DNA of 64,000 nt from an uncultured Pseudomonadales bacterium (GCA_964633875.1 CAZWKL010000002.1:23338-87337); one strand, 5' to 3'; positions 1 to 10,592 are shown, counted from the stretch's first letter. Program-made: numbers and translations. The notes: generated from the sequence alone by a model not told the origin.

Positions 1-957
1 GATCAGCATGGCCAACAGCAGTTTGAGCGGAATCAACCAAAACTTGGTGCTAGCCATCGTCACCGCGCCGCTGGCGCCGTAGCTCATGGTGAGTTTGGCG
101 GTGTAAAGACCGGTGCCCCAAATTTGCTGCCACTCGTCTTCAAAAGTTCGGCTCATCAGCGGGAAGACGTTTCTTGGTTCAATTTCTAAAGTATCGACTT
201 TTCTGCCAAACATGTTGTAAATTTCAATGCTGGTTCTGGGGGTGATATGAATGTCGGAAGCATTTTCCACGATAAAAGAAAATGGCACCGGGCCGAACTC
301 GGTGAACTTAGGGAATTGGAAGTCACGCACAAAGGCCTCTTCATTGATCGGGCCGTCAACAATAACGTAAAGCAGAGTGCCAACTTTTTGACTGATGGCG
401 CTAGCTGAAACCAACTCGCCTTCGCCGGTTTCCTCACCGTTCACAGCCGGCTCATGAGTAATCATGGCGTAGTGACCACCGGGCAGGGCATCTTCCGGTA
501 CTTCAATCAAAACATTAACCGCACCAGTTTCGTTCCGGTTGAGAGTTTGTGTTTGTGGCACTAAAGTTAGCCAGGAGGCTAAACTCCAGCGGTTGGAAAC
601 TTCTTCATCAACCGAAATCGGGGTGAAGCCGTCCTCAGCGACAGTAAAATCTGCCGCCCGGGAAACAACGTTAAGTGGCTGGTTGGACTCGTTGCGTACC
701 CGCACCTGCACTTGCTGGCGTTCTCCGGGATCGAGTAAAATGCTGTTGTCCTCGCCCAGGCGGGGCGGGATGGCCGTGAGAGCAATATTGGTGAGGCCTG
801 TTTGTTCTTGAGGCTGGCCCTGATCCAGCTGCTCTTGAGCCAGGGAAGTGTTCGTGACGGCAACAGCCGCGGCTGTCAGAGTGGCGGCAACTAAGCCAGC
901 CATGATCAACCGGCGCTGAGTCAGCTTAATAAAAAGTGAAGTTTGGGCAGTTTTCAT
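1..957 (-). CDS. DUF916/DUF3324-like cell-surface protein, 5' complete. The ORF is open to the window start, with a C-terminal TM helix at about 1..42.
   Basis: Manual translation of the minus strand from the ATG at 957 gives MKTAQTSLFIKLTQRRLIMAGLVAATLTAAAVAVTNTSLAQ (signal peptide), continuing to ...STKFWLIPLKLLLAMLI with no stop before coordinate 1. It is absent from the ORF track because it is edge-truncated. Its architecture is signal peptide, beta-rich ectodomain and C-terminal TM, like the 2547..3515 protein. Confidence 0.55.
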   Translation of the reverse strand, partial: MKTAQTSLFIKLTQRRLIMAGLVAATLTAAAVAVTNTSLAQEQLDQGQPQEQTGLTNIALTAIPPRLGEDNSILLDPGERQQVQVRVRNESNQPLNVVSRAADFTVAEDGFTPISVDEEVSNRWSLASWLTLVPQTQTLNRNETGAVNVLIEVPEDALPGGHYAMITHEPAVNGEETGEGELVSASAISQKVGTLLYVIVDGPINEEAFVRDFQFPKFTEFGPVPFSFIVENASDIHITPRTSIEIYNMFGRKVDTLEIEPRNVFPLMSRTFEDEWQQIWGTGLYTAKLTMSYGASGAVTMASTKFWLIPLKLLLAMLI

Positions 958-979
958 ATTCAATTGTTATTTATTTTTC

Positions 980-2446
980 CTAAAAAGTAGCCGTGGCTGT
1001 GTAAATGATGAAGTTGGAATAATCGCCGGCTTCGGTACTGGTGTCTGGTATGACGCGGTAACAAACATCGACTCTTTCATTGTCTGAAACTGTGGTGGAA
1101 GAAAAGAGTGACTGCGGTGATTCTGAGGCTTGGAAATCGGCGAACTGTTTGCCACACCAACCAGCACCAGTGCAGTTACCAGTCAAGCCATTGTATTGAA
1201 AACTAACCGTTGTGTTGCCGGTAACGTCGTTTGGCACCAACGAGTAGGCAAAGCCTTTTGAATCAGTGTTGCTGAATTCGTCGACGACGGCATGGGTCAT
1301 GGTGTCGGTATCGCCCCGAGCATCTTGAATACAATCGGTGTCGGTGTCGGTGGTGGGGTCTGGGTTGGTGCAACCTTGGCCGTCTTTGCTGAGTTGGTCG
1401 TTGGCGATAGCGGTGACGACATAGCCGCCCGAGCCGTTGGTGGAAACCTGGAGAGTTTGGGCGGCGTCAGAAAAGTCGCTGAGCAAAAGATTGCCAAAGG
1501 GTACGGCATAAGGGGTAGTGGTGACATCGGTACTGACGCCACAAACGCTGGTTGAGTCGTTGATGCCGATAATCTCAAAGTTGAGTTGAGGCTCAACCGT
1601 AGCAGTGACCCTCACCGCTTCAATGATGCCAACACTGGCGCCGGTCGAGTCAATGACGTTATCGTTGGTATCCAGATGTCTAATAGTGATGGTGTACGGA
1701 TCGGCGGTGCCGCTGCTATGCAAGGACTGGGGAGCGGGGTTGATCAGATTATCCATAGTAATGGTAAAAGCTTGGCCAATGCTGCCGTTACCGGTGTAAG
1801 GGCAGGTGACTTGGACATAATTATCGCTGCCCAGATTGACAGTGTTCACGGTGGGTGAGCCAAAGGTGTGGTTGCCGGCAGGGCCCGGACAAGTGACGTC
1901 TCCGTCAGAGAAGTTGCCAATATCAAAGCCGCCTTGATCTGGGGCACCGTCATTATTATCGCTGGCAGCAATGGGGATCAAAATCTCAAAGCTACCGTCA
2001 AGAATGGCAGTGACGGTGGTAAAAGCCACGCTAACGGTAGTAGCCTGAGGATCATAAATTGGCACCGCAGCGGTAGCGTCACCGGATTGGAGAGCTGTGT
2101 CCAATCTCACTGTGCTGCTATTGAGGATTTCAACGACGTCGTAATCATTGCCGTTAACAGTGCCAAAGAGCAGCGTATCATCAATAGCCAGTTGATCGGT
2201 GTTGTCTGAGGGGGGACCGGAGGTCTCGATGGTCAAAACAGTGGAGCCGATATTGTTGCCAGCACCTACTTCTCCGGAAAAGGACGGCCTGGAGTTGGAC
2301 AGAGTGACGGTGACATCGTTCAGGTTTCCAGCTCGGCTCTGTTGAGCAAACATACCCACCGCGAAAGTAGTAGCAATAGCAATGCCAAGAGCAATGGCTT
2401 TTTGAAGTTTTTTAGCAGCCAGATTTTTCATAGACAAGACAAACAC
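980..2446 (-). CDS. Large secreted Thr/Asp/Gly/Asn-rich surface protein (about 483-488 aa) with an Asp-rich Ca-binding-like stretch and a C-terminal domain shared with the 3546..4313 protein
   Basis: N-terminal signal peptide MKNLAAKKLQKAIALGIAIATTFAVGMFAQQS. Low-complexity T/D/N/G composition with paired Cys residues. Contains the segment TNPDPTTDTDTDCIQDARGDTDTM. The C-terminus is AGDYSNFIIYTATATF. The likely start is the ATG at 2431. Confidence 0.6.
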   Translation of the reverse strand: MFVLSMKNLAAKKLQKAIALGIAIATTFAVGMFAQQSRAGNLNDVTVTLSNSRPSFSGEVGAGNNIGSTVLTIETSGPPSDNTDQLAIDDTLLFGTVNGNDYDVVEILNSSTVRLDTALQSGDATAAVPIYDPQATTVSVAFTTVTAILDGSFEILIPIAASDNNDGAPDQGGFDIGNFSDGDVTCPGPAGNHTFGSPTVNTVNLGSDNYVQVTCPYTGNGSIGQAFTITMDNLINPAPQSLHSSGTADPYTITIRHLDTNDNVIDSTGASVGIIEAVRVTATVEPQLNFEIIGINDSTSVCGVSTDVTTTPYAVPFGNLLLSDFSDAAQTLQVSTNGSGGYVVTAIANDQLSKDGQGCTNPDPTTDTDTDCIQDARGDTDTMTHAVVDEFSNTDSKGFAYSLVPNDVTGNTTVSFQYNGLTGNCTGAGWCGKQFADFQASESPQSLFSSTTVSDNERVDVCYRVIPDTSTEAGDYSNFIIYTATATF

Positions 2447-2546
2447 AACAACTCATTAAGCTCATACAATAATATTAAACTGTTTTTTTTGGGTATGCAA
2501 GTGTTCTTTTGTCATTTTTTGAGTATGTTTTTTGAAGTCGATTTTG

Positions 2547-3515
2547 TTACAGTTTAATACGGTTATTTTGAGCAATTTTGAACCAATAAACCCCGCCAAC
2601 TATTGCCCCCATCAACGCCGCCACAAAGATGGAGAAGGGGATGGCGAAAATAGTGTGGGTATAGGTGGTCAACTCTCCGTCGTTGTCGAGGGTGATGGAG
2701 AATTTGTAGGGGCCGAGCATGAAAGCTGGTCGGAAGGTGAACTCGGTGACTGTTGGGGGTTCGCTGTCCAACTCAGTGGCGCGGATTTTTCTGGAGTTGA
2801 AGCCCAGGACGTTGTCCGGGTAAATTTGGTACTCAGCCACTGGGCGGCCGGTCCAGCTGGTAAGTTTGGCGCTGCCGGAGGCAGCGCCAGCACTAAACCG
2901 CTCATTTTTCAGCACCGGCTGGGCTGTCACTCCCCTAAAACTATCAATCACCCCTGGCAGCCCAAAATCTGCCACTACCAGTTTTTTTTCTAAAATATTT
3001 TTATCCGAAACCAAGATGATCAAGTTGCTGGCCACCGCGCCGCTAATTTGAGTTGCTTCATTACCTCTGGTGCCCAGATTTTCGGTCGTAAAAACCACGC
3101 TCAGGGGATACTCTCTGTCAGGCGCGGTCATGGGCGGCTCTATCTTTAATTGCAATTGTGCTACCTGTCCCGGCTCCATTTCGATTGGCTTTAGCACTGA
3201 AGCTGGCATAGTAAAGTAAGGGAAACTGTGATCTTCCTGCAAAACCGGCGCGCCGGTTACTTCGTGGAGGGAAAAATCCACGATGCTAGGTGTCACTGTC
3301 ACCGCAGCAGCGCCATTGTTTTTGATGGAAATAATGTGTGTTTGCATCATGCCAGGGGCGGCCTTGAGATAAGTGACGGGGGGAGAAACCGTCAACTCCA
3401 GGCTTCTTTGGGCGGTGGCGGGTTGAGCGCTGCCTAACACTAACAGTCCCACTGCCAGCGCCATGGTGGCAATGGTATTTTTGTAAATTCTGTACATTTT
3501 GTATATTTTTTGCAT
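2547..3515 (-). CDS. DUF916/DUF3324-like cell-surface protein with a signal peptide and a C-terminal TM anchor
   Basis: Signal peptide MALAVGLLVLGSAQPATAQ. N-terminal segment SPPVTYLKAAPGMMQTHIISIKNNGAAAVTVTPSIVDF resembles DUF916. The C-terminal GPYKFSITLDNDGELTTYTHTIFAIPFSIFVAALMGAIVGG is a TM helix followed by a short basic tail, as in DUF3324. Confidence 0.6.
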   Translation of the reverse strand: MQKIYKMYRIYKNTIATMALAVGLLVLGSAQPATAQRSLELTVSPPVTYLKAAPGMMQTHIISIKNNGAAAVTVTPSIVDFSLHEVTGAPVLQEDHSFPYFTMPASVLKPIEMEPGQVAQLQLKIEPPMTAPDREYPLSVVFTTENLGTRGNEATQISGAVASNLIILVSDKNILEKKLVVADFGLPGVIDSFRGVTAQPVLKNERFSAGAASGSAKLTSWTGRPVAEYQIYPDNVLGFNSRKIRATELDSEPPTVTEFTFRPAFMLGPYKFSITLDNDGELTTYTHTIFAIPFSIFVAALMGAIVGGVYWFKIAQNNRIKL

Positions 3516-3545
3516 TTTGTTCTAGACATTTTGTACGTTTTGTAC

Positions 3546-4313
3546 CTAATACCCAGGCACAGCCACATAAACCACGGTTGTTTCGTATTTGCCTGCTGCT
3601 TGAGTAGGATTAATCGAAGCCTTGTAAGTCACAGTCGCCTCATCATCAAAGCCAATATTTTCCGAACTCATCACCGCCCGCATCGGTTGGCTCAACTCAT
3701 CATTGGCAAACGGTCGATAATAAGTGTTGTCCTCAAAGTCTGGTGGAATGCTGTCGCCGTCCATATTAAAGCCGAAACCAGCATTTTCAGGCGTATCCCA
3801 AATCTCAGCCGAATCAGGGGTGCAGGGGCCACTGTCACAACTGGTGTCAGGCACGGTGTGAATACTATCGATAGTATGCCTCAATTCATGCAGCTCGTAA
3901 GCATAAACATGGTAGCCACCCGCGCCTCTGGTGGAGATGGTCAGCGTGTGCGAACCGGAACTAAAGGTGCCAGGCACCAGCTCCCCCAAATCTATGGCGG
4001 TGTTGGAAATCAGAAAACTAAACTCGTTAATTTGGTAAATATATTGAAAACCCCCGCCTAGGAAAAAACTTGAAGTGCCATACTCTCCATAAGGTCCGGC
4101 GCCAAACTGACCCACGGTGTCGGTGACTGTGTAGCCGGCGCTGGATTTCTCACCGGAAGTCACATTAAAATTGCCAAACTGAATAATATAAGAGTCAGAC
4201 TGCAATGTTTCCGCGACGGCTATTTGGCAGAGTTGCAAAAAAGTGATAGTAAAAAAAGTCAGCAGGGCAGCCCTCAAAGCCACACTGCTAACTGGCGGGC
4301 TTGGCTGATTCAT
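3546..4313 (-). CDS. Secreted protein (256 aa) homologous to the C-terminal domain of the 980..2446 protein
   Basis: Start set at the internal ATG (cat at 4311..4313) that gives signal peptide MNQPSPPVSSVALRAALLTFFTITFLQLCQIAVAE. Segment HTLTISTRGAGGYHVYAY matches QTLQVSTNGSGGYVVTAI in the 488-aa protein. C-terminus AGKYETTVVYVAVPGY matches AGDYSNFIIYTATATF. Confidence 0.6.
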   Translation of the reverse strand: MNQPSPPVSSVALRAALLTFFTITFLQLCQIAVAETLQSDSYIIQFGNFNVTSGEKSSAGYTVTDTVGQFGAGPYGEYGTSSFFLGGGFQYIYQINEFSFLISNTAIDLGELVPGTFSSGSHTLTISTRGAGGYHVYAYELHELRHTIDSIHTVPDTSCDSGPCTPDSAEIWDTPENAGFGFNMDGDSIPPDFEDNTYYRPFANDELSQPMRAVMSSENIGFDDEATVTYKASINPTQAAGKYETTVVYVAVPGY

Positions 4314-5085
4314 CTTGATTGTCCTGTTCGCTCTGCGATTCTTGGGGTAGGTCTGGCGGCGGCACTTTAGCAGCATTAACCCGGCCAACCATCTTGCCAC
4401 TTTCGCTCTCCAGCAGCGACAGCTGGGCTTTAATTACTTTCAGATCCGGATTTGTTTCCGCCAGCAGTTTTTCAATTACCTGAAGTTTAGGCTTGAGGTA
4501 GCCGTCAATAAATTGTTGCAGCGCCATTTCGCCGGTCTCCGCGTTCTCCAACTCGACTTCTTTCTGCTCAAGCCTGGCTTTATCCACCTGCGACTCAGTG
4601 TACTGATTTTTGGCAAACAAAAAGAACATGAGCAACAGCGGAAAAGCCAGCAGCGCACCGATTTCCAGGCTAGTTAAAGCCGGAGTGAGGGCGTAGTGAA
4701 AGATCATCACCGAAAGGGTGCCGATAATAGCGGTGCTGACCGCCGTGGTCATCACCAACAAAAACAAGTGTAAATAGGTCAGCGGATAAAAATATGACCC
4801 GATATTGCCGGTGTAGCCAATTAAGAGCAGGAAAGCAAAAGTCAGCAGGGCCATTTCCAGAGAAGCGTCCTCCGGTAGCACGTGCCAGATTTTGGCTTTT
4901 TTTACTCTTTTCATCAAGAAATAGACCAAAACCGCGCCGGCGAAAGCCTGGAGCGAGTACTGCGACAACACCGGCAGCTGCAACCAAAGATAAGCAATCA
5001 CAATTACAGCCAACAGGATCAGGGTTTGCCAGTGGGGGCGCGTTTTTTTCAACATATTTTGCAGCATATTTTTCAGTATAACCAA
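4288..5085 (-). CDS. Polytopic membrane protein (about 5-6 TM) with a cytoplasmic coiled-coil and an acidic Pro-rich tail
   Basis: Hydrophobic helices in the first ~160 aa, then EQKEVELENAETGEMALQQFIDGYLKPKLQVIEKLLAE (coiled coil), then PPPDLPQESQSEQDNQDESAKPAS. Overlaps the downstream secreted-protein gene by 26 nt. Diverges from leuS. Confidence 0.55.
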   Translation of the reverse strand: MVILKNMLQNMLKKTRPHWQTLILLAVIVIAYLWLQLPVLSQYSLQAFAGAVLVYFLMKRVKKAKIWHVLPEDASLEMALLTFAFLLLIGYTGNIGSYFYPLTYLHLFLLVMTTAVSTAIIGTLSVMIFHYALTPALTSLEIGALLAFPLLLMFFLFAKNQYTESQVDKARLEQKEVELENAETGEMALQQFIDGYLKPKLQVIEKLLAETNPDLKVIKAQLSLLESESGKMVGRVNAAKVPPPDLPQESQSEQDNQDESAKPAS

Positions 5086-5133
5086 CTTGTAGCTGGCAGG
5101 CTATAGCTGTTATACTACAACTCCCCAATCAGG

Positions 5134-7599
5134 ATGAAAATTAAGCGGGAAAATATGGCGTCAACACAATCTTGGTACGATCACTTAGCAGTAGAACCCA
5201 AATGGCAAAAAGTTTGGGAAGAGTTGGCATTGTTTCAGCGGACCGAGGGAAAAGACCGTGCCGCCGCTGAACTGGACCCCTTGTACTTGCTGTTTGCTTT
5301 TGCCTATCCTTCCGGTTCGGGCCTGCATGTGGGGCATGTGGAAAGCAAAACCGCCCTGGATATTTTAGCTCGCTACTACCGCATGAACGGCAAAGATGTC
5401 TTTTTTCCGGTGGGCTGGGATGCTTTTGGCTTGCCGGCAGAGAATTACGCTATTAAAACCGGCATTCCTCCAGTAGAAACCACCAAGAGCGCCATTGACA
5501 CCTTTCGGGAGCAAATTAAAAGGCTGGCCATTTCCTACGACTGGGCCAACGAAATTGCCACCAATCACCCGGGCTATTATAAATGGACCCAGTGGCTTTT
5601 TCTGGAACTTTTCAAGCAGGGCCTAGCCTACCAAGATGTGGCCATGGTGAACTGGTGTCCGAGTTGCCAGACGGTGTTGGCTAACGAGCAGGTGGTCAAT
5701 GGCCTGTGTGAGCGCTGCGACTCCGAGGTGATTCAGAAAGAAATGAAACAGTGGTTTTTTAAGATTACTGAGTACAAGGATGAGTTGATTGAGGGTTTGA
5801 GTTCGGTGGACTGGCCGGAGGCCACTAAGCAGCAACAGCTTAACTGGATTGGGAAGAAGGAAGGGGCGGTGGTTGAGTTCCCGGTGGTTGGGACTGAGCT
5901 GGTAGTGGATTGCTTCACCACCAGGTTGGATACGATTTTCGGCGCGACTTTTTTGGTCATTTCCCCAGAGAAGTTTGGCAAGATGGAGTTGGATCAAGTA
6001 GTCAAAGCCCAATCGCCCGAGCAGGCCAACCCCGTTGCCGAGTACATCAAGAAGGCTTTCAAAAAAACCGAAGAAGAGCGCCAAGTCGGTGAAAAAGACA
6101 AATCTGGTGTCGATACCGGACTCAAAGCAATCAACCCGGTGAATCAGGAGGAAATTCCTATTTTTGTGGCGGACTATGTTTTGGGTGGCTATGGCACAGG
6201 CGCCATCATGGCGGTGCCGGCGCATGATGAGCGCGATTTTGCTTTTGCCCAGAAGTTTGAGCTGCCGGTTCGTGAGGTGATTGAACCGGCGGGCGAGGGT
6301 TATGGCAAGTTGGTTGAAAGCGGCGCATACACCGGTTTGGCCTCAGCAGCCGCCATGGAAAAAATAGCCGCAGACTTTGACTCTATTCATCCAGAAACCA
6401 CCTACCGCCTGCGCGATTGGCTGATTTCCCGCCAGCGTTACTGGGGCGCGCCGATTCCGATTGTTTATGATCCCGAGGGCCAGCCGCATCTGGTCAAGGA
6501 GGAACACCTGCCTTGGATCCTGCCCACCGACGTTGATTTCAAGCCCACCGGCGAGTCGCCGCTCAAGTCTTCTGCCGAGTTTATCCGCCGCACCGAAGAG
6601 CTGTACGGCCAAGGCTGGCAGCCGGAGTTCGACACCATGGACACTTTTGTGGACTCGAGTTGGTACTTTTTGCGCTACGTGGATTCCAGGAACGAAAACG
6701 AGCTGGCTGCCCGGGAGCAGCTGGAAAAATGGCTGCCGGTGGATTTTTACATGATTGGCTCGGAACACACCGTTTTGCACCTGTTGTATTCGCGGTTCTT
6801 GACCAAGTTTCTGCGGGATCAAGGTTATCTCAACTTTGACGAGCCTTTCCAAAGAATGAGGCACCAGGGGATGATCTTGGGTCCAGACGGCAAAAAAATG
6901 AGCAAGAGCAAAGGCAATGTCATTAATCCAGATGAAATTATTGAAAAATTTGGAGCAGATACCCTCAGGGTTTACGAGATGTTCATGGGGCCGCTTGAGT
7001 CGGATGCTCCCTGGGATGTCCGGGCGGTGATGGGGGTTTTCAAGTTCCTCCAGCGGGTGAACAGGTTGTGTTTGGGGGCGGCTGAAGCAAAGGCGGCCGG
7101 CAGCGAGGCAGCGGTTCGTAAGCTGCACCAGACTATCCGCAAGGTTGGCCATGACATTCCGGCTTTGAAGTTTAACACTGCTATTGCCGCCATGATGGAG
7201 TTTGTCAACGCCTGGGAAGAGGCGGTTAAAGGCGGTGGCGGTTTGAGCCAAGAGCAGAGGCTGATGTTTGTGCGGATTTTAGCGCCTTTCGCGCCGTTTA
7301 TGGCCGAAGAGCTTTATCATCAGCTGACTGGCGCAGAGGAGACAAATAGTGTTCATTTGCAACCTTGGCCGCAGTTTGATGCGGCACTGGCCCGTGAGGA
7401 AGCGGTAGAGATTGGAGTGCAAGTCAATGGCAAGCTCCGCGGTACTGTTGAGATTCCTGCAGACGAGCTGGAAAATGAACAATTGGTCTTGGAAAGGTCG
7501 GCGGCTTTGGAGCCGGTAGCCAAGTACCTCGAGGGCAAGAAGATCAAGCACCAGATTTATGTGCCGGGCAGGATTGTTAGTTTTGTGGTTGAAGGGTAG
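5134..7599 (+). CDS. leuS: Leucyl-tRNA synthetase
   Basis: Class I aaRS signatures: HVGHVESKTALDILARYYRMNGKDVFFPVGWDAFGLPAE (HIGH region) and KMSKSKGNV (KMSKS). 821 aa. The alternative start at 5155 (MASTQSWYDH...) is possible. Confidence 0.95.
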   Translation: MKIKRENMASTQSWYDHLAVEPKWQKVWEELALFQRTEGKDRAAAELDPLYLLFAFAYPSGSGLHVGHVESKTALDILARYYRMNGKDVFFPVGWDAFGLPAENYAIKTGIPPVETTKSAIDTFREQIKRLAISYDWANEIATNHPGYYKWTQWLFLELFKQGLAYQDVAMVNWCPSCQTVLANEQVVNGLCERCDSEVIQKEMKQWFFKITEYKDELIEGLSSVDWPEATKQQQLNWIGKKEGAVVEFPVVGTELVVDCFTTRLDTIFGATFLVISPEKFGKMELDQVVKAQSPEQANPVAEYIKKAFKKTEEERQVGEKDKSGVDTGLKAINPVNQEEIPIFVADYVLGGYGTGAIMAVPAHDERDFAFAQKFELPVREVIEPAGEGYGKLVESGAYTGLASAAAMEKIAADFDSIHPETTYRLRDWLISRQRYWGAPIPIVYDPEGQPHLVKEEHLPWILPTDVDFKPTGESPLKSSAEFIRRTEELYGQGWQPEFDTMDTFVDSSWYFLRYVDSRNENELAAREQLEKWLPVDFYMIGSEHTVLHLLYSRFLTKFLRDQGYLNFDEPFQRMRHQGMILGPDGKKMSKSKGNVINPDEIIEKFGADTLRVYEMFMGPLESDAPWDVRAVMGVFKFLQRVNRLCLGAAEAKAAGSEAAVRKLHQTIRKVGHDIPALKFNTAIAAMMEFVNAWEEAVKGGGGLSQEQRLMFVRILAPFAPFMAEELYHQLTGAEETNSVHLQPWPQFDAALAREEAVEIGVQVNGKLRGTVEIPADELENEQLVLERSAALEPVAKYLEGKKIKHQIYVPGRIVSFVVEG

Positions 7600-8429: not shown

Positions 8430-9059
8430 ATGTTCGAAAAAACGACCCTTCATCAAATTATTTTTCAGAGGTTGAGAACCAATCGGGTGAAGATTTTGGC
8501 GCTGGTGATTTTTTTGGCGGGCAGTGGAGTGTCCGGCTTTGGTTTGGCTGCGCTGGGGGAGACTGGCGCCGCCGGGTATGAGTTGCAGCCGGTGATCACC
8601 GAATGCACTCAGACAGTTGGCGCCGGCAGCTTGAAAGTGGATGCCGGCGGCGCCATCAAAAACCCCGGCCTTTACACTCTCGATGAAGGCTCCCGGATTG
8701 GCGACGTCATCAAGGCAGCGGGAGGTTTACACCCGGATGCCGATGGCGGTTACATTGCCAGTCAGCTCAACGCCGCCAAGCCGGTCAAAGACGGAGACAA
8801 AATCTACATTCCTTATTTCCAAGAACAGCAGTCGGCGGCGGAAGCAGAGGCCTCATCAGACCAACCGCCGGGCAACAGCAAGCTTATTTCCATCAATCAA
8901 GCCACCGAGAAACAGCTGATGGAGTTACCGCAGATCGGCGCCAAACGGGCTGCGGATATTGTGGCTGGCCGTCCTTATCAATCAATCGAAGAGTTGGTGG
9001 AAATGAGCGTGCTCACTCAAGGTATTTTTGATGGGATTGAAGAGCTGATTAGTCTCTAA
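8430..9059 (+). CDS. comEA: Competence protein ComEA (TM anchor, SLBB domain and helix-hairpin-helix DNA-binding domain)
   Basis: N-terminal TM. GAIKNPGLYTLDEGSRIGDVIKAAGG (SLBB domain). C-terminal INQATEKQLMELPQIGAKRAADIVAGRPYQSIEEL (tandem HhH). Confidence 0.8.
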   Translation: MFEKTTLHQIIFQRLRTNRVKILALVIFLAGSGVSGFGLAALGETGAAGYELQPVITECTQTVGAGSLKVDAGGAIKNPGLYTLDEGSRIGDVIKAAGGLHPDADGGYIASQLNAAKPVKDGDKIYIPYFQEQQSAAEAEASSDQPPGNSKLISINQATEKQLMELPQIGAKRAADIVAGRPYQSIEELVEMSVLTQGIFDGIEELISL

Positions 9060-9164
9060 ATTAGTTATGAGGACAATACTATAGGCTAGTCGATGGACAG
9101 GTAGTTTGTTGATCGGCAACGAGAGGATAACAAATTATGATTTATTAAGCCAAAACTGCTAAAT

Positions 9165-10592
9165 TTGGTCATTATTCGCCGATATTTAGATGTCTTTATA
9201 GTAAAGCAAAATAATATGAATTTTAGCTCTTTAATCACTTTTAAGATATTAATATTAACGCAAATTCTGATAATATTATTGGCTTCGTCTATATATAGTA
9301 GTATGGGGGGAACTAAATTGGGGCGGAGAAGTCCTAGTTGGGCTGTTTTTGCCCTTAAGAACGGCAACGGAGCGAATGAAGATTTACTTGGGGAAATATT
9401 TCAATTACCTCTGGAGCGGTTTACTTTGTTCTTACACAAAAATTACTCGATTAGCACCAGACTTTTACCCCTTGCTAACGGTGTTTTAACAGAAAATATA
9501 TTGAACTATCGGGAAAAGTTGGCAATTACCAGACAAGCCAGTTCGGTAAATAGTGGGATACGCTTTTTGTCCCAGGCTATCACCTCAGGCGAAGAAACTC
9601 TCTTTCATTTCAAGCAACTCGGTATAGCTCAAACCAGATCATTCTTGGGGAAGCCGGCGAGCAATTTTTATGCCCAGCTAGTTTTTGGCAAGTTGGCTGA
9701 AGCGGATAATAAACTGCAGCCTTTATTTGCACTTACAGGGATGCAATATGTTTTGGTTGTTTCCGGCTTTCATTTGAATTTGCTCATCAGAACTGTGACA
9801 GCCAGCTTACAATCCCGCGTCGCCAATTGGCAAGTGGCATTTTTGGCAATAGCGGTGGCAATGGCGTATCACGTGGTTGTGGGTTACTCACCGTCGCTTT
9901 TTCGCGCGGCGGTAATGTCGTGTGCGGCCATCGCGGCGCGCTACGTTTTTTTTCGTCAGCACCGCGCCAGCTACTTTTTCGTGCTGATGATAGTAGTATT
10001 ATGCTTGATGTATAGGGAAAAAATCGAGAACGTATCTTTCCAGCTTTCAGCGGCAGCCACCGCCGGCATTATCTATCTAATGCCTTTTTTTACTCGAGTA
10101 GACAGTGTTATGGCTTCGATTGAAAGAGCGGAAATTAGCGGCGGCTCACTGCGTGGCAGTTTGCTGGCTAAGTATTTTGCTTTAACCAAAGAAAGTTTTT
10201 GGATCAGTGTCAGTGTTAATTTGGCTCTTTTGCCTTTATTACTGTATTACTTTGGTGAAGTCAACTTAGTATCCATTGGTATATCAAGCCTTTTCTTCTG
10301 GATGGCCTCGTTGTTGGTGGCTGGTTCCTGGCTTTTGTTGGCGCTGGCGGCAGCCGCCAGCGCCAATAATTTGCTCCATCAACTGCTTCTACCAGGCAGA
10401 GAGCTTGCTTATTACTTCATGGACTTGGTGGAGCTCATTCTGGGATCGTTTGCCAAATTGCCATTGATCGTGGCCGCGGAAAAATTTGAGCCAATTTATA
10501 TATTTTTGTGGTGGAGTGTGTTAGTAGGGTACGTAGTGATTAGGTCGCAAATCGCGGCGCGAAAAAGAGGATACCAAAGGCTAGCGCTATGA
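9165..10592 (+). CDS. comEC: ComEC/Rec2 membrane channel part (competence domain). The N-terminal DUF4131/OB region appears reduced.
   Basis: LFALTGMQYVLVVSGFHLNLLIRTV is the ComEC competence-domain motif (SGxH). Multiple TM helices follow. The stop overlaps the start of the next gene (ATGA). Confidence 0.75.
   Translation: MVIIRRYLDVFIVKQNNMNFSSLITFKILILTQILIILLASSIYSSMGGTKLGRRSPSWAVFALKNGNGANEDLLGEIFQLPLERFTLFLHKNYSISTRLLPLANGVLTENILNYREKLAITRQASSVNSGIRFLSQAITSGEETLFHFKQLGIAQTRSFLGKPASNFYAQLVFGKLAEADNKLQPLFALTGMQYVLVVSGFHLNLLIRTVTASLQSRVANWQVAFLAIAVAMAYHVVVGYSPSLFRAAVMSCAAIAARYVFFRQHRASYFFVLMIVVLCLMYREKIENVSFQLSAAATAGIIYLMPFFTRVDSVMASIERAEISGGSLRGSLLAKYFALTKESFWISVSVNLALLPLLLYYFGEVNLVSIGISSLFFWMASLLVAGSWLLLALAAAASANNLLHQLLLPGRELAYYFMDLVELILGSFAKLPLIVAAEKFEPIYIFLWWSVLVGYVVIRSQIAARKRGYQRLAL

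Follow-up and report, generated by a model that had tools for sequence, protein, structure and literature searches.

[quoted passage not shown] PamA and PamB filaments were shown by cryo-EM (coordinates 25PZ and 25QA); both pilins carry Cys pairs, and in both the linker is the donated strand as well as the best-conserved region. The same work named Microgenomatia as a class with distant PamA homologues and left the evolutionary origin of the pili open (10.64898/2026.03.03.709456). A second system to be compared is the WxL cluster of Bacilli, which in its minimal form consists of a small WxL protein, a large WxL protein and a WxLIP (PMC9772566, PMC10599100). A WxLIP strand is predicted by AF2 to complete the WxL sandwich (PMC10599100). 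WxL proteins are described as peptidoglycan-bound and not as filaments, and in the literature searched no paper connects WxL to donor strands, to chaperone-usher pili or to Pam.

The window analyzed in this work is a whole stretch of 64,000 nucleotides labeled as an uncultured Pseudomonadales bacterium (GCA_964633875.1 CAZWKL010000002.1:23338-87337). All features described below lie on its minus strand. They belong to a six-gene operon in the order G-B-C-A-E-F, on a single strand throughout, with the following plan: membrane protein, putative small pilin, chaperone-like protein, putative large pilin, chaperone-like protein, and membrane protein. We assign the region, with a probability of about three in four, to a Pam-type pilus operon in Microgenomatia (CPR/Patescibacteria), chaperone-usher-like but without an usher, of which it would form the core. 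The system diverges from the known Pam pili, among which we place it; it constitutes a separate Microgenomatia branch and not an equivalog, since its NCBIfam scores fall far below the curated cut-offs. This operon pattern (GPcPcF) is intact in 40 of 80 Microgenomatia loci, and G was found at the first position in most of the 80. The hosts are Woese-, Pace-, Shapiro-, Beckwith- and Cerribacteria, plus Microgenomates. All informative titles among these loci belong to Patescibacteria or Microgenomatia lineages, which points to a restriction to CPR, and the many 'uncultured Pseudomonadales' labels in the set look like mislabels. The first gene of the operon, G (4288..5085), encodes a 265-aa polytopic membrane protein that has, by hydropathy, at least four hydrophobic helices followed by a coiled-coil or acidic tail at the C-terminus; domain-family scans gave no family match for it.

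Gene A (980..2446) encodes a secreted, two-domain, PamA-like protein of 488 aa, the putative major pilin. Its homologues include 146 proteins of 460-510 aa, every one of them unannotated. The signal peptide is followed by an N-terminal beta-sandwich (residues ~40-274), a linker (275-286) and a C-terminal domain (288-488; 983..1585). In the AF2 model (pLDDT 92.8), strands occupy residues 43-274 and 288-486, with residues 275-287 unpaired between them, so that the predicted layout is that of PamA and PamB: an N-terminal beta-sandwich, an unpaired linker and a C-terminal domain. The linker, IEAVRVTATVEP (1589..1624), tops the conservation of the A family among 12-residue windows (0.85), includes the invariant residues E276, V278 and A282, shows alternating hydrophobic residues, and has no secondary structure in the AF2 monomer model. 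This top rank fits the expectation for a donor strand, and the linker is regarded here as a candidate for that role by analogy with the Pam pilins. Windows 334-345 and 474-485, which fall on hairpins of the C-terminal domain, rank second and third. The three best-conserved windows of A thus comprise the linker and the domain hairpins, in keeping with the Pam pilus pattern of greatest conservation in the linker that serves as donor strand and in the site that receives it.

Gene B (3546..4313) encodes a small, secreted, PamT-like protein, the putative tip or nucleator pilin. Translation that starts with the ATG at 4313, preceded by AGGA at a distance of 9 nt, gives 255 aa, and the ENA gene call is likewise 255 aa; the mechanical ORF begins at a GTG at 4400 and is 284 aa long. 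The small secreted protein described in the earlier note thus has a length of 255 instead of 256 aa. After a signal peptide (~1-34), the protein has a conserved N-terminal region, SYIIQFGNFN...TVGQ...GFQYIY, in which the conserved GFQYIY is positioned where A has its linker. The domain common to A begins at about residue 97 and extends to residue 255 (3549..4025). Within it lie the hairpin TLTISTRGAGGYHVYAY and a Cys pair of the form C-x4-C, and its tail reads AGKYETTVVYVAVPGY-COOH.

By sequence comparison, the C-terminal domains of A and B are homologous. In BLASTP of the 488-aa against the 255-aa protein, residues 314-484 of A aligned to residues 106-251 of B (E 3e-8, 40.4 bits), with 24% of positions identical. 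The Smith-Waterman score of 118 compares with 36 +/- 6 for 2000 composition-preserving shuffles of one or the other sequence; it was not reached by a single shuffle (z = 13.6), so composition does not account for the similarity. Compared profile against profile, 37 C-terminal domains of the A family and 29 proteins of the B family gave a probability of 99.8% and E 4.7e-30 over 149 columns, and jackhmmer seeded with either A or B retrieved the same 142 ORFs. The earlier note had proposed a common C-terminal domain of roughly 200 aa from four quoted strings, all of which occur in the translations: QTLQVSTNGSGGYVVTAI (A 330-347), HTLTISTRGAGGYHVYAY (B), AGDYSNFIIYTATATF-COOH and AGKYETTVVYVAVPGY-COOH. 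The domain itself was borne out by each of these comparisons; its extent is 170-200 aa, and the reliably aligned stretch covers 150-200 aa. The Cys pairs expected downstream of the aligned strings were also found, as GQGC...TDC in A, C-terminal of QTLQVSTNGSGGYVVTAI, and as TSCDSGPC in B, C-terminal of HTLTISTRGAGGYHVYAY. The common tail is kept in both families as Y-x5-[YF]-x5-[FY]-COOH, with F as the last residue in 77 of 78 large proteins and Y or F in 56 of 57 small ones. These motifs correspond to two beta-hairpins: one is the Gly-rich GGY-x-V, the other the final strand Y-x3-I-x-Y-x-A-x3-F-COOH together with the strand that precedes it. In A, the hairpin TLQVSTNGSGGYVVTA lies at 1406-1459 inside the domain, and the tail AGDYSNFIIYTATATF-COOH at 983-1030 ends it.

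The shared domain is better explained as the Pam pilin C-terminal domain (NF058581) than as a WxL domain. NF058581 (CPR_Pam_pilin_C) matched residues 313-488 of A with E 9.6e-5 and B with E 1.3e-6, while NF058579 (CPR_pilus_PamT) matched B with E 2.8e-8. These scores of 22.5, 28.6 and 33.5 bits are all under the curated NCBIfam cut-offs (55 bits for NF058581 and 240 bits for the PamT equivalog NF058579), and no relative approaches these cut-offs. The matches extend across the families. NF058581 was found in 48 of 53 relatives of A (best E 8.3e-10), 28 of 29 relatives of B, and 63 of 80 diverse representatives (best about 1e-9). NF058579 was found in 18 of the 29 B relatives (best E 4.9e-14, and 1.2e-16 in a further family scan), again far under its cut-off.

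The two remaining genes within the core encode membrane-anchored, chaperone-like proteins, each built of a pair of Ig-like domains. The product of gene C (2547..3515; 322 aa), a WxLIP and PamC/PamD analogue, has a signal peptide followed by beta-sandwiches at 41-169 and 179-292, and its C-terminal TM helix spans 294-317 (AF2 pLDDT 88.6). Its best Foldseek matches are the E. faecium WxLIP structures 9i25_C, at the top, and 9i1y (E 3.4e-9, target-normalized TM-score 0.55). RbmA comes next, and then the chaperones CsuC, Caf1M, SafB, CfaA, DraB and FimC. E-values run from 1e-9 to 1e-6 over this whole list; against the chaperone-usher chaperones they are 1e-7 to 1e-6, with target-normalized TM-scores up to 0.59. 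Gene E (1..963) is cut by the window edge, with 321 of its 370 aa inside; the complete gene is at L001:11484-12596. Its product ends in a TM helix according to hydropathy and matches PF06030 (WxLIP_PGBD, DUF916) with E 1.6e-5 and 25.4 bits, near the cut-off of 27.3. PF06030 was matched by 21 of 26 E-family and 20 of 33 C-family members. C and E are paralogues, as judged by the alignment of their families (hhalign in global mode, E 5e-45). Both are well supported as remote homologues of WxLIP (DUF916-DUF3324-TM): hhalign against WxLIP gave 97.6% and E 4.5e-12 for the C family and 96.9% and E 1.9e-10 for the E family, and the C profile placed EfmWxLIP1 first among PDB sequences (E 0.006). Neither protein matched the NCBIfam Pam chaperone models. 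A long beta-hairpin of C (residues 134-169; 3009..3116), assigned by DSSP and with a low-confidence tip by pLDDT, bears the invariant S163-N164-L165...L168-S170 (GAVASNLIILVSD) and aligns with 'IAYNLAVVLQES' of EfmWxLIP1 in the search against PDB sequences. For WxLIP, a hairpin of the equivalent domain has been predicted to enter the WxL fold (PMC10599100). We regard the hairpin of C as a candidate for the donated, G1-like strand.

In comparison with the Pam pilus, the common features are a homologous C-terminal domain at significant E-values, a large pilin-like protein with an N-terminal beta-sandwich, a conserved linker and this domain, a small protein that is putatively PamT-like, conserved Cys pairs, the absence of an usher and a CPR host. 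The paralogous C and E, which both combine a signal peptide with a TM helix at the C-terminus, can be likened to the PamC/PamD pair by architecture and fold. However, the content of the two systems is not identical. The single large pilin A stands in place of PamA, PamB and PamE, and counterparts of PamB, PamE and PamR are absent from the operon; the RbmA-like PamR is not recognizable unless C or E fills its role. In addition, the conserved membrane proteins G (~240 aa) and F (~680 aa) flank the operon. These two are outside what the Pam pilus model accounts for.

CPR bacteria have no outer membrane, and no operon protein matched usher families in family scans; the chaperone-usher pili (Pap/Fim, CFA/I, Csu, Caf1 and Saf) have both. 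The chaperones of the Microgenomatia system are membrane-anchored, its pilin subunits would have two domains, and the candidate for the donor strand lies internally, in the linker between these domains, whereas in chaperone-usher pili it is an N-terminal extension. There is also no sequence similarity, as the C-family and E-family scans, each listing 25 families, both lack PapD Pfam families. The likeness consists in the predicted two-Ig-domain, chaperone-like fold of C, a conserved, aromatic-rich C-terminal strand of the subunit and, by analogy, donor-strand complementation and exchange.

By analogy with the PamA/PamB cryo-EM structures and with chaperone-usher pili, the following assembly route can be proposed. 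After Sec export, the Ig-like fold of the C-terminal domain would be incomplete and leave a groove open, presumably lined by the two conserved hairpins. The membrane-anchored C and E would then close this groove with a strand of their own, for which the hairpin ...SNLIILVS... is the candidate. The filament would be extended by donor-strand exchange, with the linker (IEAVRVTATV) of an incoming A displacing the chaperone strand from the groove of the preceding subunit. B may nucleate the filament or occupy its tip, because it has the acceptor domain and lacks the PamA-type N-terminal domain, and one of the membrane-anchored proteins may retain the filament base. The earlier suggestion of a non-covalent docking module would hold in this scheme for docking to a partner; its other half, cell-wall binding, found no support.

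An alternative, which we consider improbable, is a non-polymerizing surface complex of the WxL type, where the carriers would be held by WxLIP-like proteins via strand complementation and the large carrier would present its N-terminal domain as an adhesin, with no filament formed. The WxLIP homology of C and E speaks for it, as do a gene layout equal to that of the minimal WxL cluster, with the domain at the extreme C-terminus of one small and one large carrier next to a partner of WxLIP architecture (PDB 9I25 and 9I1Y), and the strand complementation that AF2 predicts for WxL. The tails of A and B are also in exact register with the distal motif Y-x3-[LIV]-T-W-x-L-x3-P of real WxL proteins, following the common scheme Y-x3-[LIV]-x-aromatic-x-small or aliphatic-x3-end. 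Furthermore, no filament is on record for this lineage. Against this reading, the Pam homologues form filaments seen by cryo-EM, and the domain significantly matches Pam pilin models and never Pfam WxL (PF13731), which none of the 53 + 29 family members matched even with E allowed up to 10. Profiles of the A and B domains retrieved nothing from PDB sequences, the 9i25 WxL chain included. Hhalign against 12-21 real WxL domains stayed at noise level (E 0.008-0.37; the negative controls gave 0.036-0.9, and small against large WxL, the positive control, reached 4.6e-16); the best local alignments fall mostly on the C-terminal hairpin and in register, which is suggestive only. The exposed linker, the best-conserved element of A, is hard to account for without strand donation. 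The hosts differ as well, CPR as opposed to Firmicutes, and the LPXTG companion gene of WxL clusters is missing. The resemblance to WxL drawn in the earlier note, with Tyr in place of Trp, thus stands for the cluster layout, the WxLIP-type partner and the tail register and fails for the motif and the domain profile: Trp-x-Leu is absent, with G-G-Y-x-V and Y-x-A at the equivalent positions and no conserved Trp there.

A deeper relationship can be put forward tentatively, and we hold it to be possible but doubtful. The Pam pilus system and the Firmicutes WxL clusters would be two branches of one ancient surface-display system, and the WxL domain a diverged Pam pilin C-terminal domain (Tyr corresponding to Trp). 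In that common system, a membrane-anchored tandem-Ig 'chaperone' (WxLIP or PamC/D-like) may complete the C-terminal beta-sandwich of its client by strand donation in bacteria without an outer membrane. If the common origin is true, WxL proteins might exchange strands among themselves. The evolutionary link between the Pam-type operon and WxL clusters is possibly new. Because C and E are remote homologues of the Gram-positive WxLIP, they offer a concrete starting point for tracing how Pam pili evolved. They also suggest how the WxL virulence clusters of Enterococcus, Listeria and lactobacilli, which are poorly understood, might work: by strand complementation and possibly by exchange.

Sortase-dependent pilins or adhesins of the Gram-positive type, covalently joined or anchored, are a far less probable explanation. 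One distant A-family paralogue does adjoin a sortase and a 2183-aa SpaA/SdrD_B protein (locus L002), but no sortase gene was found inside the conserved operon. LPXTG is absent, and the proteins end in ...ATATF and ...AVPGY without a hydrophobic or charged C-terminal tail; the structural similarity to such proteins is a generic Ig-fold likeness. Finally, the reading of A and B as unrelated beta-rich secreted proteins made similar by composition (Thr-, Ser-, Gly- and Tyr-rich strands), which the earlier note had raised against itself, has next to no chance of being correct: both are T/S/G-rich and their pairwise identity is low, but the shuffle test and the profile-profile comparison refute it, and the shared jackhmmer set and the match of both proteins to one curated domain model, NF058581, agree with that outcome.

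CPR bacteria make up a large, mostly uncultured share of bacterial diversity, and their attachment to hosts is largely unexplained. The compact, strongly conserved six-gene Pam version of Microgenomatia allows several hundred protein clusters, with 777 representatives, to be annotated in a usable way, since the sources consulted call these operon proteins 'hypothetical protein' or leave them nameless and the curated models miss them at their cut-offs. One further feature concerns the operon structure. The major pilin gene A is preceded by an AT-rich intergenic spacer of 100 nt (2447..2546), in which neither a consensus promoter nor a terminator exceeded chance. Across complete operons, the gap before A is the only long one, with a median of 81 nt, and the remaining junctions have gaps of 16 nt or less.

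A run of same-strand genes occupies the minus strand at the left end of the window: G (4288-5085; 265 aa, a polytopic membrane protein), B (3546-4313; 255 aa, a putative small PamT-like pilin), C (2547-3515; 322 aa, chaperone-like), A (980-2446; 488 aa, a putative large PamA-like pilin) and E (1-963), a second chaperone-like gene that is cut by the window edge after its first 321 codons. Full-length E has 370 aa on the same contig (ENA ERZ27247346 k141_90337, 151.8 kb; locus L001), where the operon extends leftwards out of the window, with E and then the 664-aa F (L001:11484-14605). The leuS gene lies upstream in divergent orientation. A and B each have a single N-terminal hydrophobic segment, the signal peptide, and are secreted, while C and E each combine a signal peptide with a C-terminal transmembrane helix. 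The start of B is most likely the ATG at 4313, not the GTG at 4400, because AGGA is found 9 nt upstream and the ENA gene call agrees. No further copies of the A or B family were found within the window.

We read the operon as encoding a Pam-type pilus, with a probability of roughly 75%. This system type has been known since 2026, curated models exist for it, and the preprint describing it already points to Microgenomatia; the operon is therefore a divergent member and not a new kind. What is new here is the definition of a compact six-gene operon, unannotated in the sources consulted, and the recognition of its chaperone-like components as homologues of WxLIP, the WxL-interacting protein of Gram-positives.

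The earlier note had proposed that A and B share a C-terminal domain, and the strings it quoted are all present in the translations. In BLASTP, A 314-484 and B 106-251 align at 24% identity (E 3e-8), and the similarity goes beyond composition bias, with a Smith-Waterman score of 118 lying 13.6 sd above 2000 composition-preserving shuffles. Searches with jackhmmer from A and from B retrieved the same 142 ORFs in related loci, and a profile of the C-terminal domains of the A family matched the B-family profile at 99.8% probability (E 4.7e-30). The tail pattern Y-x5-[YF]-x5-[FY]-COOH is near-universal among the relatives; the terminal residue is F in 77 of 78 large proteins, and Y or F in 56 of 57 small ones. 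When a profile built from both window domains was run with HMMER against 1.84 billion representative proteins, 777 representatives were matched at E <=1e-3 and 323 at E <=1e-10. Among the matches listed, the domain is nearly always located at the C-terminal end, and protein sizes are bimodal (~240-290 and 470-530 aa).

Pfam gave neither WxL nor any other meaningful match for the four window proteins. From NCBIfam release 20, the Pam pilin C-terminal domain model NF058581 ('CPR_Pam_pilin_C') matches A 313-488 (E 9.6e-5), and B is matched by NF058579, 'CPR-type pilus protein PamT' (E 2.8e-8), as well as by NF058581 (E 1.3e-6). Among relatives, such matches recur in 48 of the 53 homologues of A, in 28 of the 29 of B, and in 63 of a diverse set of 80 representatives. 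A and B have homologous C-terminal domains, which fall within the Pam pilin C-domain superfamily. Since every NCBIfam Pam score is below its curated cut-off, we assign the family to a divergent sister branch and not to an equivalog. Phmmer and hmmsearch comparisons of A, B and the domain profiles with PDB sequences returned no match in a set that apparently lacks 25PZ and 25QA (PamA/PamB).

The NCBIfam Pam models derive from the 2026 preprint on Ca. Mycosynbacter amalyticus, in which cryo-EM structures are reported for filaments of PamA and PamB (10.64898/2026.03.03.709456). There, the pilin C-terminal domain takes up the linker of a neighbour subunit by donor-strand exchange, and conservation in PamA/PamB is highest in the donated linker and the site that binds it. 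The Pam operon also encodes the single-domain tip PamT, the PapD/FimC-like chaperones PamC and PamD, which carry a TM helix at the C-terminus, and the RbmA-like anchor PamR; in Microgenomatia, only a language-model search detected distant homologues of PamA (10.64898/2026.03.03.709456).

The AlphaFold2 model of A (53-sequence alignment) is confident, with a pLDDT of 92.8. Behind a signal helix, residues 43-274 form a beta-rich N-terminal region and residues 288-486 a beta-rich C-terminal domain; the segment between them (275-287) is unpaired, so that A consists of two domains joined by a linker. None of the 146 A homologues of 460-510 aa has a Pfam domain, and in the sources they are unnamed or called 'hypothetical protein'. 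The most conserved 12-residue window across the family is the unpaired linker itself, IEAVRVTATVEP, with E276, V278 and A282 invariant; the next are VSTNGSGGYVVT (334-345) and then GDYSNFIIYTAT (474-485), the two motifs that had been spotted in the earlier note. This pattern of a linker plus two motifs is like that of PamA/PamB, and by analogy the linker of A is a candidate donor strand, with the two motifs probably lining the acceptor groove. B has a conserved GFQYIY segment at the place where A has its linker.

The C model (33 homologues, pLDDT 88.6) contains two beta-sandwich domains (41-169 and 179-292) followed by a TM helix (294-317). Its top Foldseek match in the PDB is the Enterococcus faecium WxLIP 9i25_C (E 3.4e-9, target-normalised TM-score 0.55), from an entry titled WxLIP 'bound to long WxL'; 9i1y was also retrieved. 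Ranked behind WxLIP are RbmA, at a low TM-score, and after it many chaperones of chaperone-usher systems (CsuC, Caf1M, SafB, CfaA, DraB and FimC). EfmWxLIP1 was also the best match of the C-family profile among PDB sequences (E 0.006). The WxLIP domain PF06030 (WxLIP_PGBD, formerly DUF916) is matched by 20 of the 33 relatives of C and 21 of the 26 of E, the contig's own E scoring 25.4 bits, under the gathering score of 27.3. Against nine real WxLIPs from Firmicutes plasmids, hhalign in local mode gave 97.6% for C (E 4.5e-12 over 204 ectodomain columns) and 96.9% for protein E (E-value 1.9e-10); in a global-mode run, C and E were identified as paralogues (E-value 5e-45). No Pam chaperone model of NCBIfam matched C or E. 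Both proteins have tandem Ig domains of WxLIP/PapD-like fold and are anchored in the membrane.

A long hairpin in C (134-146 and 158-169), low-confidence at its tip, carries the invariant motif SNLIILVS, which aligns to 'AYNLAVVLQES' of EfmWxLIP1. In AlphaFold2 predictions for WxLIP, a hairpin of the same domain gains order and, through a parallel strand interaction, completes the beta-sandwich of WxL (PMC10599100); this predicted interaction is formally donor-strand complementation. By the mechanism we propose, C and E would donate a strand that caps the open groove of A and B just after their export, and the linker of an incoming A would displace it, leading to head-to-tail polymerisation. 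B may start or tip the filament, one of the membrane-anchored proteins may retain its base, and the filament might extend to host cells, a role already proposed in M. amalyticus.

The likeness to WxL domains noted earlier is supported for the mode of action and unsupported for family membership; the client domains may share a deep homology. A minimal WxL cluster consists of a small WxL protein, a large WxL protein with the domain at its C-terminus, and WxLIP (PMC9772566, PMC10599100); the operon has the same layout and a homologous WxLIP-like component. Real WxL proteins end in Y-x3-[LIV]-T-W-x-L-x3-P, often as their last residues, and the tails of A (Y476-SNF-I-I-Y482-T-A484-TAT-F488-COOH) and B (Y-ETT-V-V-Y-V-A-VPG-Y-COOH) are in the same register. 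The layout of the first domain motif (strand, Gly-rich turn, aromatic, x, aliphatic) is comparable as well. The Pam and WxL systems could be homologous as wholes, client domain included, which we consider rather unlikely; no Pam-WxL link was found in the papers searched, and the Pam preprint does not mention WxL. Hhalign of the domain against 12-21 WxL domains gave E 0.008-0.37, overlapping the negative controls (0.036-0.9), whereas the positive control, small versus large WxL, gave 4.6e-16. In most cases the best local alignment covers the C-terminal hairpin, with the registers matching, at scores that are not significant. With more plasmid WxL clusters and more diverse domain profiles, E was 0.017-0.28, within the negative-control range, and we therefore do not claim homology of the domain to WxL. 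Membership in the WxL family itself is unsupported, as the domain lacks the Trp-x-Leu motif, 82 family members have no Pfam WxL match, and the hhalign values overlap those of the negative controls. The suggested cell-wall role, as peptidoglycan binding, gets no support. A sortase-pilin reading is rejected, as there is no sorting signal and the operon has no sortase.

Among the plasmid records, three 185-aa 'hypothetical proteins' directly upstream of DUF3324 (WxLIP) genes in Lactiplantibacillus and Levilactobacillus (L093:6285-6842, L094:6282-6839, L096:5517-6074) have ...YTGTITWTLSG... near their C-termini. These are WxL proteins absent from the record annotation.

A genome scan with a 14-sequence A alignment yielded 125 A relatives, and 80 loci were retained. 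The full order of G, small pilin, chaperone-like, large pilin, chaperone-like and F occurs on one strand in 40 of the 80, most of the others being cut by contig ends; the genes are tightly linked. Intergenic gaps are at most 16 nt except ahead of the large pilin gene (median 81 nt across complete operons), where the window has a 100-nt AT-rich spacer (2447-2546). This spacer suggests that the most abundant subunit is regulated separately or that the mRNA is processed here; a promoter and terminator scan of 900-5300 gave nothing above shuffled expectation. G, the conserved first gene, shares 26 nt with the start of B and encodes at least four hydrophobic/TM helices and a coiled-coil, acidic C-terminal tail; it has no family match, and the Pam preprint names no counterpart. 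F, at the same position in most loci, comprises an N-terminal hydrophobic segment, Big/Ca-tandemer-like Ig repeats, a Pro-rich stretch, three more hydrophobic helices and a C-terminal domain, and could be an assembly platform.

Where the titles of the 80 loci are informative, they name Microgenomatia and allied CPR lineages: Woesebacteria, Pacebacteria, Shapirobacteria, Beckwithbacteria (complete genome CP011210), Cerribacteria, Microgenomates and 'Patescibacteria group'. Dozens of TPA MAGs with the operon bear the title 'uncultured Pseudomonadales bacterium', and another is labelled 'Gammaproteobacteria' (L004-L083), which looks like a systematic error of taxonomic labelling among the deposits.

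Near the operon on the same contig, ~4 kb to the left of the window (L001:16562-21467), lies a gene for a 2704-aa protein that weakly matches Peptidase_S74 (tail-fibre/endosialidase chaperone); a 'tail fibre-like protein' consistently co-localises with pam operons (10.64898/2026.03.03.709456). Just past leuS, on the plus strand (8430-10592), precomputed Pfam matches for L001 indicate ComEA-like (SLBB and HHH_3) and ComEC-like (Competence) genes, and thus DNA-uptake machinery near the pilus operon. A lone distant A-family paralogue of 470 aa, unaccompanied by B, C, E, G or F, lies beside a sortase gene and the gene for a SpaA/SdrD_B-repeat protein of 2183 aa on an 836.7-kb contig (JGI 3300038679; L002:10001-18538), where another surface system may have taken up the domain.
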